Virus record (IMG/VR): IMGVR_UViG_3300033076_000548 | Coordinates: 1-45,806 of that record | Source of the DNA: a virus | Lineage: Duplodnaviria > Caudoviricetes | DNA: 45,806 nt | Reading direction: 5' to 3' (one strand) | Shown here: one piece after another, positions 9,286 to 43,610 of the stretch | Layout of the letters: each line of letters opens with the position of its first letter | How positions within the stretch are numbered: the stretch's first letter is position 1 | Notes under the pieces: model-generated | The model's database searches: none | The model's input: only the letters and a program-made list of their open reading frames with translations | Told to the model about the DNA's origin: nothing | Position numbers and translations under genes: made by a program

Positions 9286-9635
9286 TGCTTGAAGAATGGC
9301 CAGAAACACCCACTCCAAAAGGGCATACAGGTAGGTGGGTGACATTACAAGCAGACATTAGAGAAAACTCTACTGGTGTAGTTAGAGAATACACAATGCC
9401 TGCTCCTCTAGAGAAGGAAGAAAAGCTCTCTACATGGATTTGGGAAGAGGGTAATTATGCCTGTGATTGCAACCGTAGATTATTTTTTGGATATGCAATA
9501 GGTGAGGACTATGATGATATTGATCATCCGTGTGGAGATAGTTTGTTTTCTGTTCGGATACGAAACCCAAGAACAAAAACTGTTTTCTACTCAGATTTTG
9601 TAGAGGATGATGAAAACAATGGGACATCGTTATAG
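9285..9635 (+). CDS. hypothetical protein with CDC motif
   Basis: WEEGNYACDCNRRLFF; SD AAGGA. Confidence 0.7.
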   Translation: MLEEWPETPTPKGHTGRWVTLQADIRENSTGVVREYTMPAPLEKEEKLSTWIWEEGNYACDCNRRLFFGYAIGEDYDDIDHPCGDSLFSVRIRNPRTKTVFYSDFVEDDENNGTSL

Positions 9636-9825
9636 TGATAAGGCATTAGCCCTATATTTTTATGTGTGTCAAGGAATAAACAGGTCTTCTGCTTTACATA
9701 TTAAAACAGGTATAACACCAGAAGAAGTTCACTTTATCTTAATGGATATGCGTAGGAAAAAACTTATTAGGCATAATAAGAAATATGGGTGGAGGCCAGT
9801 CCCAATTGAAAACCTTAACACTTGA
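9607..9825 (+). CDS. small basic protein, possibly winged-helix
   Basis: 72 aa, helix-turn-helix-like pattern with a basic C-terminal hairpin. Confidence 0.5.
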   Translation: MMKTMGHRYSDKALALYFYVCQGINRSSALHIKTGITPEEVHFILMDMRRKKLIRHNKKYGWRPVPIENLNT

Positions 9826-10954
9826 CAGCGAAGTAACAACTCACGCTAAAGGAAACCCATTCTCACGTAAAAACCATTCTGTGTGTTGGAGCTGGAAGCG
9901 GGACACCAATCCCGCTAAATGCAACATGCATTCTTGGAAGAAGAGGCGTTCTTCCATACAGAACGCCCTAAAAAAACACCAGCCTTTGCTGGTGTTTTTT
10001 AATGCTAAGTTTGACATTCATTGGGGGAGGAATGACGGAATAGATTTGACTGGTTGCCCCATCTGGTGTTGTCAGCTTGCTGAATACATTCTTGAGAACC
10101 AGCGCCAGCGCTATCCTTCTCTAGAAGATGCAGCAGTTAAGTATGGCCTAGGACACAAGGAAGATGTTGTGAAGAAGGTGTATTGGGAGCAGGGCCTGGA
10201 CACCATCTTTGTCCCATGGCACGTCCTTAGCAGCTATGCCAACCAAGACGTAGAGCTGACGTATAAGGTCTATCAAAAACAGCTTGAACAGTTTGAAGTA
10301 CAGCCTCGCCTATTTAGGTTGTTCAAACAGGCTTGTGCTGATTTGTTGGTGTTGTTAGAAATGGAGAAGAATGGTATTTGGTACGATGCAGAGATGTGTC
10401 GAGAAAAAGAAGTAGAAGCAGAAGCTGAGCTTGCACAAATCAAGGAGGAGCTTGCCAACGTCTATCCAAATATTCCTATCAATTTCAACAGCAATGACGA
10501 CCTGTCGGCCTTCTTATATGGTGGTGTTATAACAGAGACAGTGAAGGAGCTTGATGGATTTTATAAGAGTGGTGCTAAGAAAGGAATGCCTAAGTACAAG
10601 AACGTAAAGAAGGAGCACCAGCTTCCACGTCTGTGTGAACCTATTAAGAGGAGTGAGACAAAGAAACCTGGCTTCTGGAAAACCTCTAAAGACCTGCTTG
10701 TACAGCTTAAAGGGCCTTATGCTAAGAAGTATGTCAGTAAGCTGTTACGCCTGGCGGATCTAGACAAACAAATTACCAGCTACTATCGCAAGCTTCCTTC
10801 AATAACACAGGAGATGGATTGGGAGCCAGGTGTACTACACGGACAACTAAACCAATGTGTGACGGCAACAGGCCGCTTGTCTGCTGACATATTTAACCAG
10901 CAGAACATGGCCGGCAACAGTAAAAACATTCTTATCAGTCGATATACAACATGA
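9806..10954 (+). CDS. family A DNA polymerase, N-terminal subunit (3'-5' exonuclease + thumb)
   Basis: ExoI LDSE, ExoII FNAKFD, ExoIII YANQD; INFNS; TATGRLS near the C-terminus; TTG start after GGAGG. Confidence 0.9.
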   Translation: MKTLTLDSEVTTHAKGNPFSRKNHSVCWSWKRDTNPAKCNMHSWKKRRSSIQNALKKHQPLLVFFNAKFDIHWGRNDGIDLTGCPIWCCQLAEYILENQRQRYPSLEDAAVKYGLGHKEDVVKKVYWEQGLDTIFVPWHVLSSYANQDVELTYKVYQKQLEQFEVQPRLFRLFKQACADLLVLLEMEKNGIWYDAEMCREKEVEAEAELAQIKEELANVYPNIPINFNSNDDLSAFLYGGVITETVKELDGFYKSGAKKGMPKYKNVKKEHQLPRLCEPIKRSETKKPGFWKTSKDLLVQLKGPYAKKYVSKLLRLADLDKQITSYYRKLPSITQEMDWEPGVLHGQLNQCVTATGRLSADIFNQQNMAGNSKNILISRYTT

Positions 10955-11154
10955 GAACCAAAAACAAAGAAGAACAATTTATTTTCTCCCTCGTCGACAT
11001 GGCCAATTTCCTAGAGGAATGGGGTGTTGAATATGTAATGAAGGAGCTTCAACAATTTGACAGCATTGTGCACACCAACCTCCAACGACACTTCCAAATG
11101 GATAGCACCACGAAGCGTGTGGCTGCTTTGCTGCGAGATTTCGATGTGGCGTAA
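10951..11154 (+). CDS. hypothetical protein between the polymerase halves
   Basis: ATGA-coupled ORF. Confidence 0.65.
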   Translation: MRTKNKEEQFIFSLVDMANFLEEWGVEYVMKELQQFDSIVHTNLQRHFQMDSTTKRVAALLRDFDVA

Positions 11155-11199
11155 AAGAGAAGGAAAGATGTTTGTATCGTATAGACAACAGGACTAAAC

Positions 11200-11454
11200 A
11201 TGGCACGAAGTAAATATGTATATGTATTAATGTATTGTCCCTGTGAGGAAGACTCTGTGTGGGAGCCAGTAATGGCCTACACAGTTAAACATGAGCTTGT
11301 TTGGAGGTGGTACAAAGATTGTTTCAGTGATATTAATTTCCAAGTATTGAGATTTGGTGATGGTGTTCCTGGCAACTGTGGGACAGACATTACTGAAAAG
11401 ATTGTGAAAGAATCAAACCAGCTCAAGAAGCTGGAGGAGGGAGAGCCTTGTTAG
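11200..11454 (+). CDS. hypothetical protein between the polymerase halves
   Basis: SD AGGA; 84 aa. Confidence 0.65.
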   Translation: MARSKYVYVLMYCPCEEDSVWEPVMAYTVKHELVWRWYKDCFSDINFQVLRFGDGVPGNCGTDITEKIVKESNQLKKLEEGEPC

Positions 11455-12179
11455 TCAATTGTGATGCCAAGGCTCTTTAGCTTGAGTGGGTAACCCTGGC
11501 AGAGCTAAGCCAAGACCCTGTAGCTAAACGTGAGCTTGAGGAGAAGATTGATCAACACACTTCAAACCAATCCCTGTTCAACCTACCTACCCGTAAGGTG
11601 GCAAAACTCTACCTCTTCAGAACTATCTACAACAGAGGCAAAGGCTTTGCCTTCACTGTAGATCCCGACTTCCTACATGTGTCTACAAGTGTGAAGTTTT
11701 GGGACAACATTGGAGAGAAGTTTTACGAGAAGTATGCTGGCATCAACAGGAAGCATCTAGAATGGATACAACATGTGTCCCAAGGCAATGTTCTGGAGGG
11801 GCCTTCAGGCCGGCAATGGAAGTTTGAGATGCTACCCAATTGGAAAGGAGAACTGGAATGGCCAGTGAACAGTATTATATGCTATCCCAACCAAGGCACT
11901 GCTGCTGATGTGATGATGCTGGCTCGCCTCAGTCTCGCCAGCCGACTTAAAAAACTAGCTCTTCCAGAAATCCTTATGATTTCTACAGTGCATGACAGCA
12001 TTGTGCTAGATAGCCCTAAGAAGCATGTTCCTATGCTAGTAGAGCTGTTTCACTCTGTGTTTGATGATTTGCCTAAGAACATCAAGAAATGCTGGGGGTA
12101 TGAATGGAACACCCCATTAACATGCGAAGTGAGTGTTGGTCCTAATATGAAAGACCTTGAGGAAGTATCTCGTAGCTAA
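11448..12179 (+). CDS. family A DNA polymerase, catalytic subunit, with an in-frame TAG at 11478-11480 inside motif A
   Basis: TTG after GGAGGAGG gives MLVNCDAKAL*LEW (motif A), in frame with motif B RKVAKLYLFRTIY, NQGTAAD and motif C VHDS. Confidence 0.9.
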
Positions 12180-12205
12180 GGCTACTCGTTTATAAAGGAA
12201 AGAAA

Positions 12206-12787
12206 ATGAAGATTAAAATTGTATCTATTGAAAAGAACGCAGCCACCGCCAAGAATGGGAAGCCTTATGAAGTGATTGAGGTAGCTTATAAGAACCTATC
12301 ATTCAATGGTAAGATGGAGAGCCGGAAGATTATGCCTTTTGGTAGCACGGCTGACACAGCTCGTATGCTGTCTAAGGCGTCTGCTGGGGAGCTGTATGAA
12401 ATCACTGTGGTGAAGAATGCTGCTGGGTATAACGACTGGACTGCTTGTGCTCCTACTGATGAGGCACCAACAACCCCTTATCCACATCCTGTTACGGCGA
12501 GCAAACTTGCATCACTCCCTAACAAAGCATCTTCTGGGAATTACCCCACTGCGGAAGAGCGTGCTAAAACGCAAGTTTATATTGTACGTCAAAGCTCTAT
12601 TAACCAGGCCCTGGAATATTTGAAACTTACTGGTACTGATATGGACCGCATCCCAGAAGTTACAGATGTCTTAGAAATTGCTAAGAAGTTTGAGCAGCAT
12701 GTGTTTTCTATAGCACAGCCTAAGAGCCTGCTTGATATGGAGAATGACCTTCCTCCTGTTGAGGCGTATGACGACATTCCAGATTGA
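12206..12787 (+). CDS. putative single-stranded DNA-binding protein
   Basis: OB-fold-like beta-rich N-terminus, acidic tail YDDIPD, position after the polymerase. Confidence 0.55.
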   Translation: MKIKIVSIEKNAATAKNGKPYEVIEVAYKNLSFNGKMESRKIMPFGSTADTARMLSKASAGELYEITVVKNAAGYNDWTACAPTDEAPTTPYPHPVTASKLASLPNKASSGNYPTAEERAKTQVYIVRQSSINQALEYLKLTGTDMDRIPEVTDVLEIAKKFEQHVFSIAQPKSLLDMENDLPPVEAYDDIPD

Positions 12788-12790
12788 TGT

Positions 12791-12955
12791 ATGTTTAAGT
12801 TTTTACTAGTTGTACTGCTGTCGGGACAACCGCCACAACCTGTGGCCTTGTTCACCCATCCAGCTATGTGCCAATATATGGCTGCTGTAATTAATAAGTC
12901 TGACATTGATGGGAGAGCTGTCTGTATTGAAACAGTTCCATATGGAGACACTTGA
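12791..12955 (+). CDS. small secreted/membrane protein (54 aa)
   Basis: MFKFLLVVLLSG hydrophobic N-terminus, two Cys. Confidence 0.5.
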   Translation: MFKFLLVVLLSGQPPQPVALFTHPAMCQYMAAVINKSDIDGRAVCIETVPYGDT

Positions 12956-13338
12956 TGCGAAAGATTTTTGAGTGGTTTATTCCTTCTATGTTTTGGTGGA
13001 AGACAAAGAAAAGCACTCTTCTAAACTCTGCTCGATTAGACCATTTATACAATCCTGGTGTAGGTAAGCGGAATGGGGAACATTATCTATGTTTTGCTGT
13101 AAGCAAAGCCGCTCAAGAAGTGAAAGAGGACCATCCCATTCTATCCTTCTTTTTTGGTACGAATGAGTGGAAACTAAGGGATGACATTATGGACTTGCTT
13201 AATGGGCACTCTTGCGTGACCTCTTTCTTGGTAGAACGTGGAGATATTACCTGGTCGGCTGGAGTCGATGAACACCAGTGGGCACGTTGGAAATGGGCTG
13301 GTAAATTGATAAACAAGTATTTGGAACGTGGTGAATGA
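12955..13338 (+). CDS. hypothetical protein (paralog of 3650..3985)
   Basis: SD GGAG; shared motifs. Confidence 0.7.
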   Translation: MRKIFEWFIPSMFWWKTKKSTLLNSARLDHLYNPGVGKRNGEHYLCFAVSKAAQEVKEDHPILSFFFGTNEWKLRDDIMDLLNGHSCVTSFLVERGDITWSAGVDEHQWARWKWAGKLINKYLERGE

Positions 13339-13613
13339 AGATTCCTAAAACATTTAAACTGGGAGGTGTCACTTGGACAGTGGAAAACACAGACCTAGCT
13401 GGTGCTGGTAGCCAGGGATTGTGTAAGAGTGATAAAGCCATCATCCAGCTAGAGAAGACACAGACAAAGGCCACTGTTGGTCAAGTGTTTTGTCACGAGC
13501 TTGTACACGCCATTTTGTTTGCTATGGGGAAGCACGTAGAGCCTCATGACGAAGTGTTTGTCGATGGGTTCGCAACGTTTCTTCACCAATATTTGGAGCA
13601 GCATGGGAAATAG
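13335..13613 (+). CDS. small HExxH metallopeptidase-like protein
   Basis: FCHELVHAIL...HDEVFV. Confidence 0.75.
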   Translation: MKIPKTFKLGGVTWTVENTDLAGAGSQGLCKSDKAIIQLEKTQTKATVGQVFCHELVHAILFAMGKHVEPHDEVFVDGFATFLHQYLEQHGK

Positions 13614-13645
13614 GTCGTTTGAGTACAAACTCCCGAGGAAAACTT

Positions 13646-14464
13646 ATGCAACCACTTCTCATTATAGATTCCGACCACCTAACATATAGAAATGCAGCAT
13701 CATGTGAGCCTACAAAGACACGACTAGACAGGGCAGAGCTTCACATTGCCATCTCTCGTATGGAATGGTCTATCAACAACATATTTGAGAAAACAGGCTC
13801 TGACAAGTATGAGATGTACATTGGTGGAGACAACAATTTCCGCAAGGAAATCTACCCCCTCTATAAAGCCAATCGTGCAAATATGAAGAAGCCTATGTGG
13901 CTTGAAGACTGTCGTGAGCATCTCATGGTGAAGTGGGGAGCTAAAATAATCAATGGTATGGAGGTTGATGATATGTGTGGTATTAGAATGTCCTGCGTCC
14001 ATTCTATCGCCCCCATTTGTGTGTCTCTAGACAAAGACCTTCTACAAATACCAGGCCGGCATTACAACTTCGTCAATGACGAGCACACCATTGTGTCTGA
14101 ACTAGAAGGTATGCGTCGGTTCTATAAGCAAATTATTCTTGGGGATTTGTCCGACAACATTCCGGGATATGATGGGAAATATCGAGACAAGGTGCCCAAG
14201 TTCATTAAGGCTATGCAAGATCCACTGGACTCCTTAGAGGAGGAAGTGGAAATGTACGAGCATGTTTGTGCTGTTTATGGAGGAGATACAGAGCGTGTCG
14301 ACCTACATGCCCAGCTCTTATACGTACTACGAAAAGAAGAACAACATTGGCAAAACCCTCTAAAAAGAAACAAACAGAATGGACCCCAGCCAGAAAGCAC
14401 AGCTTCATCGTCTCACAGCTTCGTGCCGGATCTCGAAGGTGGCCACCCCTCTATGAATGCTTAA
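13646..14464 (+). CDS. 5'-3' exonuclease (T7 gp6/T5 D15-like)
   Basis: IIDSD, NFRKEIYPLYKANR, EVDD, DKDLLQIPG, GDLSDNIPG. Confidence 0.92.
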   Translation: MQPLLIIDSDHLTYRNAASCEPTKTRLDRAELHIAISRMEWSINNIFEKTGSDKYEMYIGGDNNFRKEIYPLYKANRANMKKPMWLEDCREHLMVKWGAKIINGMEVDDMCGIRMSCVHSIAPICVSLDKDLLQIPGRHYNFVNDEHTIVSELEGMRRFYKQIILGDLSDNIPGYDGKYRDKVPKFIKAMQDPLDSLEEEVEMYEHVCAVYGGDTERVDLHAQLLYVLRKEEQHWQNPLKRNKQNGPQPESTASSSHSFVPDLEGGHPSMNA

Positions 14465-14751
14465 ACGAAGCTAAGACAGAGAAGAGGATAAATGTAAAGA
14501 CGGGCCGTATGGCCCAACATTACAGGTGTGCATGGTGTAAGGGAGATTTCTCTAGCACCAATGTAGCTGTAGACCACATACACCCAGTGGTTGATCCAGT
14601 GAAAGGCTTTGAAAGCTGGGACGAGTTTATCAAACGTCTCTATTGCGAAAAAGACAACCTACAGGTGTTGTGTAAGGAATGCCATACAGAGAAGTCGGCA
14701 TTAGAACGAGACATAAGAACTAAACAAAGAAAGAAAAAAGATGTTTCTTAA
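14347..14751 (+). CDS. HNH endonuclease
   Basis: CAWC...VDHIHPV...NLQVLCKECHTEKS; TTG start. Confidence 0.85.
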   Translation: MAKPSKKKQTEWTPARKHSFIVSQLRAGSRRWPPLYECLNEAKTEKRINVKTGRMAQHYRCAWCKGDFSSTNVAVDHIHPVVDPVKGFESWDEFIKRLYCEKDNLQVLCKECHTEKSALERDIRTKQRKKKDVS

Positions 14752-43444: not shown

Positions 43445-43527
43445 GCATGTTTGGTGGAATTGGTAGACACAGCTGGTTTAAGCCCAGCCGCTTCGGCGTG
43501 AGAGTTCGAGTCTCTCAACATGCACCA
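43445..43527 (+). tRNA. tRNA-Leu (TAA)
   Basis: Acceptor GCATGTT/AACATGC, anticodon arm GCTGG-TTTAAGC-CCAGC, long variable arm, TTCGA loop, encoded CCA. Confidence 0.92.
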
Positions 43528-43534
43528 GCCCTTT

Positions 43535-43610
43535 GGGCCAGAAGCTTAAACCTGGTATAAGCACCCGGCTCATAACCGGCAGACAGTGGGTTCAAATCCC
43601 TCCTGGCCTA
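43535..43610 (+). tRNA. tRNA with CAT anticodon, probably Ile2 (lysidine type)
   Basis: Acceptor GGGCCAG/CTGGCCT with C4-G69 and C5-G68, loop CTCATAA, TTCAAAT T-loop; no encoded CCA. Confidence 0.8.

Follow-up and report, generated by a model that had tools for sequence, protein, structure and literature searches.

Few natural cases of programmed bypassing are known. In the closest to the locus described here, gene 60 of phage T4, the bypassed insert is reported to block nicking by the endonuclease MobA and to outlast the nuclease (Manning and Atkins, bioRxiv 2022.08.31.505936), and re-zipping of the mRNA that exits the ribosome has been proposed as the driver of the jump (bioRxiv 2024.12.09.627546). 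Synthetic stop-hops in E. coli, in which matched codons flank a stop codon and nine bases specify one amino acid, have also been described (Weiss 1987, via PMC5009743 and bioRxiv 2024.12.09.627546). A 2016 review states that no in-frame stop-hop had been found in nature (PMC5009743).

Here we analyse a 45.8-kb IMG/VR phage record (45,806 nucleotides; hereafter the window), the family A DNA polymerase (PolA) of which is split over two open reading frames (ORFs) with two small genes between them. Motif A of the catalytic subunit is interrupted by a six-base gap that contains a stop codon. We consider it likely that ribosomes cross this gap by a stop-hop that is assisted by a hairpin, and that the gap derives from an endonuclease cassette.

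Judged from its sequence, the PolA gap would work like the gene 60/MobA cassette, although it falls outside that system. In both, as far as the gene 60 case is set out in the cited account (bioRxiv 2022.08.31.505936), an endonuclease cassette lies in an essential replication gene (for PolA, in relatives rather than in the window itself), the gap appears to be kept after loss of the nuclease, a stop or rare codon follows the take-off codon, and the landing codon would be readable by the same tRNA. Repeated lateral spread with varied nuclease types as carriers is a further likeness, as is a 5′ stem-loop behind the ribosome, the PolA counterpart of which is a computed one. The gene 60 gap is 50 nt long, whereas PolA gaps span 1–10 nt (6 nt, in frame, in the window), and it lies at codon 46 of a topoisomerase gene (Gly46/Asp45) rather than at codons 9–13, in PolA motif A. 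In T4 the 5′ arm of a take-off stem-loop includes the take-off codon, a structure that PolA lacks, and a nascent-peptide signal lies 25–30 residues before take-off, whereas only 10 residues precede the PolA stop, too early for a tunnel-spanning signal of this kind. The PolA hairpin is instead made of the leader and the start codon and, unlike in T4, many different gaps occupy one site. In T4, protein sequencing identified a single product and the gap blocks nicking.

The synthetic stop-hops are laboratory constructs that work at a low level without stimulators, whereas the PolA gap occurs naturally, is conserved and comes with a candidate stimulator. The 10-nt bypass in the terminase of Streptomyces phage Hau3 and the mitochondrial byps of Magnusiomyces resemble it in their short inserts behind a slow A-site codon and in a relaxed landing match; these have sense-codon triggers (UUA, unused codons) and lie in other genes, and the relevant parts of the report mention no nuclease cassette (PMC10732093). 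The prfB +1 frameshift site resembles the PolA gap in its shift-prone CTT before a stop (PMC12421855), and two relatives of the window read exactly CTT TGA. The window differs from prfB in needing +6 rather than +1, and no release-factor autoregulation is implied.

We found no published account of a gap in PolA motif A in a search mainly of the open literature; the supplement to bioRxiv 2022.08.31.505936 may hold related cases. New here are an in-frame gap of six bases, a set of gaps from +1 to +10 at one motif, the 0/139 control for adjoining nucleases and the hairpin of leader and start codon. An element of about 50 nt would provide a minimal test of exiting-mRNA pairing as a bypass driver (bioRxiv 2024.12.09.627546), and nature supplies dozens of variants that differ in the length of the jump, the landing codon and the strength of the hairpin. 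The set of gaps also joins +1 frameshifting and bypassing at one site, a possible route by which T4-type cassettes begin.

A split polymerase with an interrupted motif A

The polymerase of the window fits the split family A type of MEP401/QDWS535-like podophages, with two ORFs of which the second begins just before motif A. We found the same split in Alcaligenes phage QDWS535 and in MEP401, and it is described as normal in this group (PMC10580990). The features of the locus are as follows.

9785..10954, plus strand: PolA N-terminal subunit, 3′–5′ exonuclease and first part of the polymerase domain (Pfam PF01612, PF00476)
10951..11154, plus strand: 67-aa small gene (weak homologues by phmmer, E 1e-4 to 4e-3)
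11168..11197, plus strand: candidate decayed old start of the C subunit (MFVSY..., then a stop); weak, although its position fits and the related contig X2 diverges from 11167 to 11417
11200..11454, plus strand: 84-aa ORF in the slot where relatives hold an endonuclease (phrog_18777 match only)
11433..11440, plus strand: strong Shine–Dalgarno (SD) sequence GGAGGAGG (anti-SD duplex −12.6 kcal/mol)
11440..11478, plus strand: 5′ hairpin, pairing 11440–11450 (leader and TTG) with 11468–11478; inner stem 11454–11457 with 11462–11465
11448..12179, plus strand: catalytic subunit of PolA (C-terminal; motifs A, B and C), TTG start; Asp codon of motif A at 11463–11465
11475..11477, plus strand: putative take-off codon CTT (Leu10), CTT-enriched in gapped relatives
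11478..11480, plus strand: in-frame TAG, A site
11481..11483, plus strand: putative landing codon CTT; decoding would restart at GAG 11484

Weak homologues of the 67-aa gene adjoin the C-subunit start in the intact loci L284, L048, L105 and L073 (phmmer). The candidate old start at 11168 was not significant in a profile test, and the 84-aa ORF has no endonuclease match. A promoter scan of 9400–12400 gave 3 sites against 5.4 expected by chance.

A sequence-only reading of this DNA had placed a TTG start at 11448 behind a strong SD sequence and had located CTT TAG CTT (11475–11483) inside motif A of the catalytic subunit. Both are present: the frame from TTG 11448 reads MLVNCDAKAL, TAG, LEW and then remains open to TAA 12179. 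Because the family profile aligns without gaps to Klenow IVSADYSQIE, D6 is the motif A Asp; we take the Klenow residues to be D705 and E710. The expected D-x4-E spacing is the rule in the family, as 101 of the 120 listed homologues carry D-x4-[LI]EW, with 3 that read LQLEW and 16 without the motif at their called start. The C subunit is 74% identical to the uninterrupted homologue P0002, and the window contains no second polymerase copy.

The window is one metagenomic record and our comparison is based on contigs, which leaves an assembly or sequencing error to be weighed. Contigs from other studies span the site without gaps and keep 11475–11483 unchanged: X2 (49 kb) has 43 differences in 757 nt (94% identity), and X3/X5, probably one data set, have 67 in 757 nt (91%), with silent changes beside the site at 11465, 11474 and 11486. 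With six-base stop gaps in 36 further contigs as well, the probability of an error, an alternative kept open by the sequence-only reading, is negligible. X1 shows 0 differences over 10459–13588 and is possibly the source sample; X7 agrees with the window but ends 10 nt beyond the site, and was therefore not counted as bridging.

A stop after codon 10, together with the truncated ORF that is all most gene callers give (P0003, P0124 and P0125), could also mark a dead gene in a phage that depends on a host or co-infecting polymerase. We think this extremely unlikely. Downstream of the gap, dN/dS is 0.06–0.23 in gapped pairs (11 of 16 computable) and 0.08–0.17 in intact pairs (7 of 8), which points to the same purifying selection, although part of the value reflects time spent as intact genes because gaps move sideways. 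The strong SD sequence and the hairpin are maintained, and the only recurring internal stop in the covered 4–15 kb is that at 11478 (114 alignments; elsewhere at most 4). A recent inactivating duplication, also considered previously, is disfavoured.

Gaps in relatives and their flanking codons

In a set of 199 distinct related contigs to which the window belongs, 53, again with the window, have a gap of 2–10 bases in motif A: 37 have six-base gaps, 5 two, 4 four, 3 seven, 2 eight and 2 ten. Loci fetched by downstream motifs are unbiased as to gap content; in one such viral sample 14 of 79 scored loci were gapped (best 80 of 165), and in a second, 4 of 78 (best 80 of 573). A genome collection yielded 6 loci, 2 of them gapped, all on MAG contigs uninformative as to the host, and a viral-contig search with a single protein yielded just 1 locus. 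No cultured carrier of the gap was found; the cultured relatives checked, QDWS535 and MEP401, are intact. Gene callers truncate such polymerases or may render them as readthrough products.

Every six-base gap holds TAA or TAG (37/37) and none a sense codon. When the middle codon was left free, a viral scan gave 30 hits, 6 of them true relatives, and a metagenome scan gave 54, 23 of them true, with a stop in 6/6 and 23/23, respectively. A scan that permitted TGA returned 14 hits and 7 relatives (1 new), in none of which was TGA found, and a later scan (19 hits) recovered two true relatives with CTT TGA G, the prfB +1 site.

These counts bear on whether the stop is instead decoded as an amino acid, with the resulting D-x6-E spacing tolerated. 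The three LQLEW proteins (P0021, P0031 and P0037) may be sense-codon versions, which would favour such readthrough, or may contain a TAG that the gene caller read as Gln; in addition, the base after the stop is C, reported as a weak context in prfB (PMC12421855). However, a sense codon occurs in 0 of the 29 true hits of the free-middle scans, TAA and TAG are both used, and two long minus-strand ORFs of the window end in TAG. Moreover, 16 of the 53 gaps are not a multiple of three and thus are not readable in this way. The window contains no suppressor tRNA and no tRNA with a CUA anticodon, and we regard readthrough as very unlikely. Its only tRNAs are Leu-UAA and one with a CAU anticodon (43445–43527 and 43535–43610, plus strand; the latter missed by ARAGORN), neither of which reads CUU or a stop. 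A phage recoded throughout with TAG as Gln was also considered and rejected: a single internal stop recurs across the region covered, no CUA tRNA is present and TAA variants exist.

Group I introns are marked by a U before the 5′ splice site, a terminal G and a catalytic core. The CTTTAG of the window is preceded by U and ends in G, and intron-like breaks occur elsewhere in polymerase genes of the family (L028), so the extra bases could be excised from the RNA by a trans-acting ribozyme or by a nuclease and ligase, as a micro-intron. This we judge highly improbable. X2 and X3/X5 have A in place of that U, Rfam identifies no intron family in the window, and gaps range from 1 to 10 bases with no shared ends. 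Under a loose test, 12 of 43 local sequence types have no register that ends in G and 23 of 43 have none with both U before and G at the end. The same observations speak against the group I remnant that the sequence-only reading had listed.

In that reading, identical codons on either side of the stop were the mark of a hop, to be sought in relatives as a codon–stop–same-codon pattern. The window has CTT on both sides of TAG, and the stop is universal among the six-base gaps, but strict identity of the flanks is not required: they are identical in 20/37 and share the CTN box in 31/37, and the landing codon is CCC in 5/37, with CAG/CGG in 1/37. Odd landings are undercounted in these figures because the pattern scans are blind to landings outside YTN or HTN. 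A CCC landing pairs poorly with the Leu tRNA, which counts against a hop. By contrast, codon choice at the site is strongly biased, with CTT at take-off in 28/32 Leu-type six-base gaps compared with 8/70 intact genes, and TTA or TTG in 0/64 flanking codons of gapped genes compared with 31/70 in intact ones.

The take-off codon shifts along with the gap, as in CAG TAG CGG, GAA TAG CTAC GAT/GTA, GAA ATAC GAC and CAA ATATG CAG. In nearly all types the last in-frame codon is followed by a stop or by ATA (the exceptions are two +4 types; ATA follows take-off in the +7 and +8 types), and in nearly all the final codon of the gap resembles the last in-frame codon. In a GenBank virome genome (MW202697; L292:1170–1210), an extra A in an A run within motif A, behind a strong SD sequence, is either a +1 variant or a homopolymer error. 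Seven further homologues (P0032, P0036, P0050, P0076, P0080, P0102 and P0112) have out-of-frame text before LEW or FEW at their called N termini, which suggests additional frame-changing gaps.

A hairpin of leader and start codon

The stem previously proposed to cover the site (TTAGCT/AGCTAA, 11477–11482 with 11503–11508) can form, but at chance level (z −0.63; 46/200 shuffles). We found no conserved structure 3′ of take-off (gapped versus intact, p 0.80); the conserved structure sits upstream, so the downstream stem is unsupported. The 5′ hairpin of the window has a z of −3.39, with 1/200 shuffles as good. Across representatives, the duplex between leader and take-off region has a median of −10.35 in 44 gapped loci and −3.5 in 70 intact ones, and at least five leader pairs form in 41/44 and 21/70, respectively. 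Gapped loci pair better with their own leader than with swapped ones (−10.9 versus −6.3, p 7e-7), whereas intact loci do not (−3.9 versus −4.1, p 0.19); these p values are inflated because the representatives are related.

The hairpin has three registers, which go with TTG, GTG or ATG start codons and show compensatory pairs; its strength is the same with or without a nuclease (p 0.87). The distance between the 3′ end of the stem and take-off varies (−5 to +11), and the duplex is nearly absent in one gapped clade (L211, L127 and L213; −2.5 to −3.3). In X2 and X3/X5, T11474A breaks one stem pair, whereas two other changes keep theirs. The anti-SD duplex is also stronger in gapped representatives (median −12.1 in 44, against −5.6 in 70 intact ones), a difference of which part may reflect translational coupling in intact loci. 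The window carries an AAGG 8 nt upstream (the T4 mini-SD lies 6 nt 5′ of the landing codon); by eye, such a sequence is absent in DASQL types.

Because it covers the start codon, the hairpin may act on initiation only. An unassisted, leaky hop might then supply enough polymerase, with the hairpin damping initiation or being a by-product of the cassette. Low-level stop-hops without stimulators are reported (bioRxiv 2024.12.09.627546), about 10 thioredoxin molecules per cell are said to support T7 replication (PMC12645430), and the clade without a hairpin retains its gap. Yet the hairpin pairs specifically with the codons that end at take-off and tracks take-off where this is shifted (L059, L086 and L097); it arose in three registers and persists without a nuclease; and damped initiation fits badly with a far stronger SD sequence. 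We therefore consider an unassisted hop fairly unlikely and favour one that the hairpin assists.

Endonuclease cassettes and a proposed route

An endonuclease ORF or its remnant adjoins the C-subunit start in 24 of 48 gapped contigs and in 0 of 139 intact ones, in a count limited to contigs with at least 300 nt upstream and made with nuclease queries derived from gapped loci. After clustering at 80%, the figures are 17/30 and 0/48, and among the unbiased downstream-motif loci they are 10/17 and 0/133. As an independent check, a scan of 40 of the 46 distinct abutting ORFs with PHROGs placed 18/25 of those from gapped loci in endonuclease families, compared with 0/15 from intact loci; Pfam did not recognize the nucleases among the 46 ORFs and gave 1 weak HNH match. 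The cassettes carry at least three nuclease types.

Close pairs of loci (L211/L213 versus L214/L212, L099 versus L044 and L086 versus L084) show the layout: the element sits a few codons into the gene and is followed by a new SD sequence, a recoded start of motif A and the gap. An orphan old start remains upstream in 9/13 nuclease loci, 1/13 gapped loci without a nuclease and 1/37 intact loci. The cassette of L211 opens with TTGACT-17-TATACT, which lies about 70 nt before the start of the nuclease and is promoter-like by eye; this cassette may carry a promoter of its own. On a quick tree of 105 rows (9 short rows excluded), the gap changes 24 times, at least 10 of them forced (shuffled mean 29.7; 2/500 shuffles as low), which indicates repeated gain, loss or lateral spread. 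Independent pairs link nuclease and gap, with 6.1 in the same direction and 0 in the other (median p 0.03).

The window has no nuclease beside its C-subunit start, as is the case in 24 of the 48 gapped loci. The nuclease slot holds the 84-aa ORF, X2 diverges over 11167–11417 and the old start is non-significant, so that loss of the nuclease in this lineage, with the gap, SD sequence and hairpin staying behind, is a presumed step. The gap was probably introduced by a homing-endonuclease cassette, against the cutting of which it would protect. The earlier proposal that the gap serves mainly to ration the polymerase finds no support: the gap moves together with endonuclease cassettes and is accompanied by a far stronger SD sequence, which favours nuclease protection with compensation. 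Of the natural minimal programmed bypass proposed from the sequence, a real, conserved short gap with a stop-hop as the best fit thus stands, whereas the stem named, strict codon identity and rationing do not.

We propose the following route. An endonuclease element would enter the C-subunit gene within its first codons, bringing a new SD sequence, a recoded start of motif A and a short gap; this gap would destroy the DNA target of the element while leaving the protein unchanged. In the window genome the nuclease would since have gone, with the gap, SD sequence and hairpin remaining. A ribosome would start at TTG, melt the hairpin and pause when peptidyl-tRNA-Leu is paired to CUU and the A site holds UAG. 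The hairpin could then re-zip on the mRNA leaving the ribosome and push the ribosome forward, so that the tRNA pairs again six bases downstream and GAG is the next codon decoded. Nine bases would be read as one Leu, and the D-x4-E spacing would thereby be restored. Most ribosomes would probably terminate, a loss that the strong SD sequence and a low need for polymerase could absorb; a modest hop yield could suffice, given that T7 replicates with about 10 thioredoxin molecules per cell.

The balance tips slightly towards a more specific version, in which this is a natural, essential in-frame stop-hop driven by the leader/start-codon hairpin alone, and one of a set of +1 to +10 jumps that several unrelated homing endonucleases evolved repeatedly, as intron-free self-immunity, at one motif. 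If so, bypassing would join introns and inteins as a third and common way for selfish nucleases to reside in essential phage genes.

PolA of this family is a nuclease hot spot. An HNH-like ORF of 193–198 aa breaks up the end of the N subunit in L044, L051, L079, L014 and L097, and L028 and L114 have breaks downstream, after motif B; these interruptions are probably introns. Other nuclease genes occur in the window. The gene at 48–629 on the minus strand, distant from the polymerase, encodes a relative of the cassette nucleases, an endonuclease of 193 aa (phrog_374, 1035 and 3322), and an HNH-type nuclease gene at 14266–14751 on the plus strand overlaps the exonuclease gene. At the start of the 5′–3′ exonuclease gene, X2 has 899 other letters in place of window positions 13611–13646, possibly another mobile cassette.
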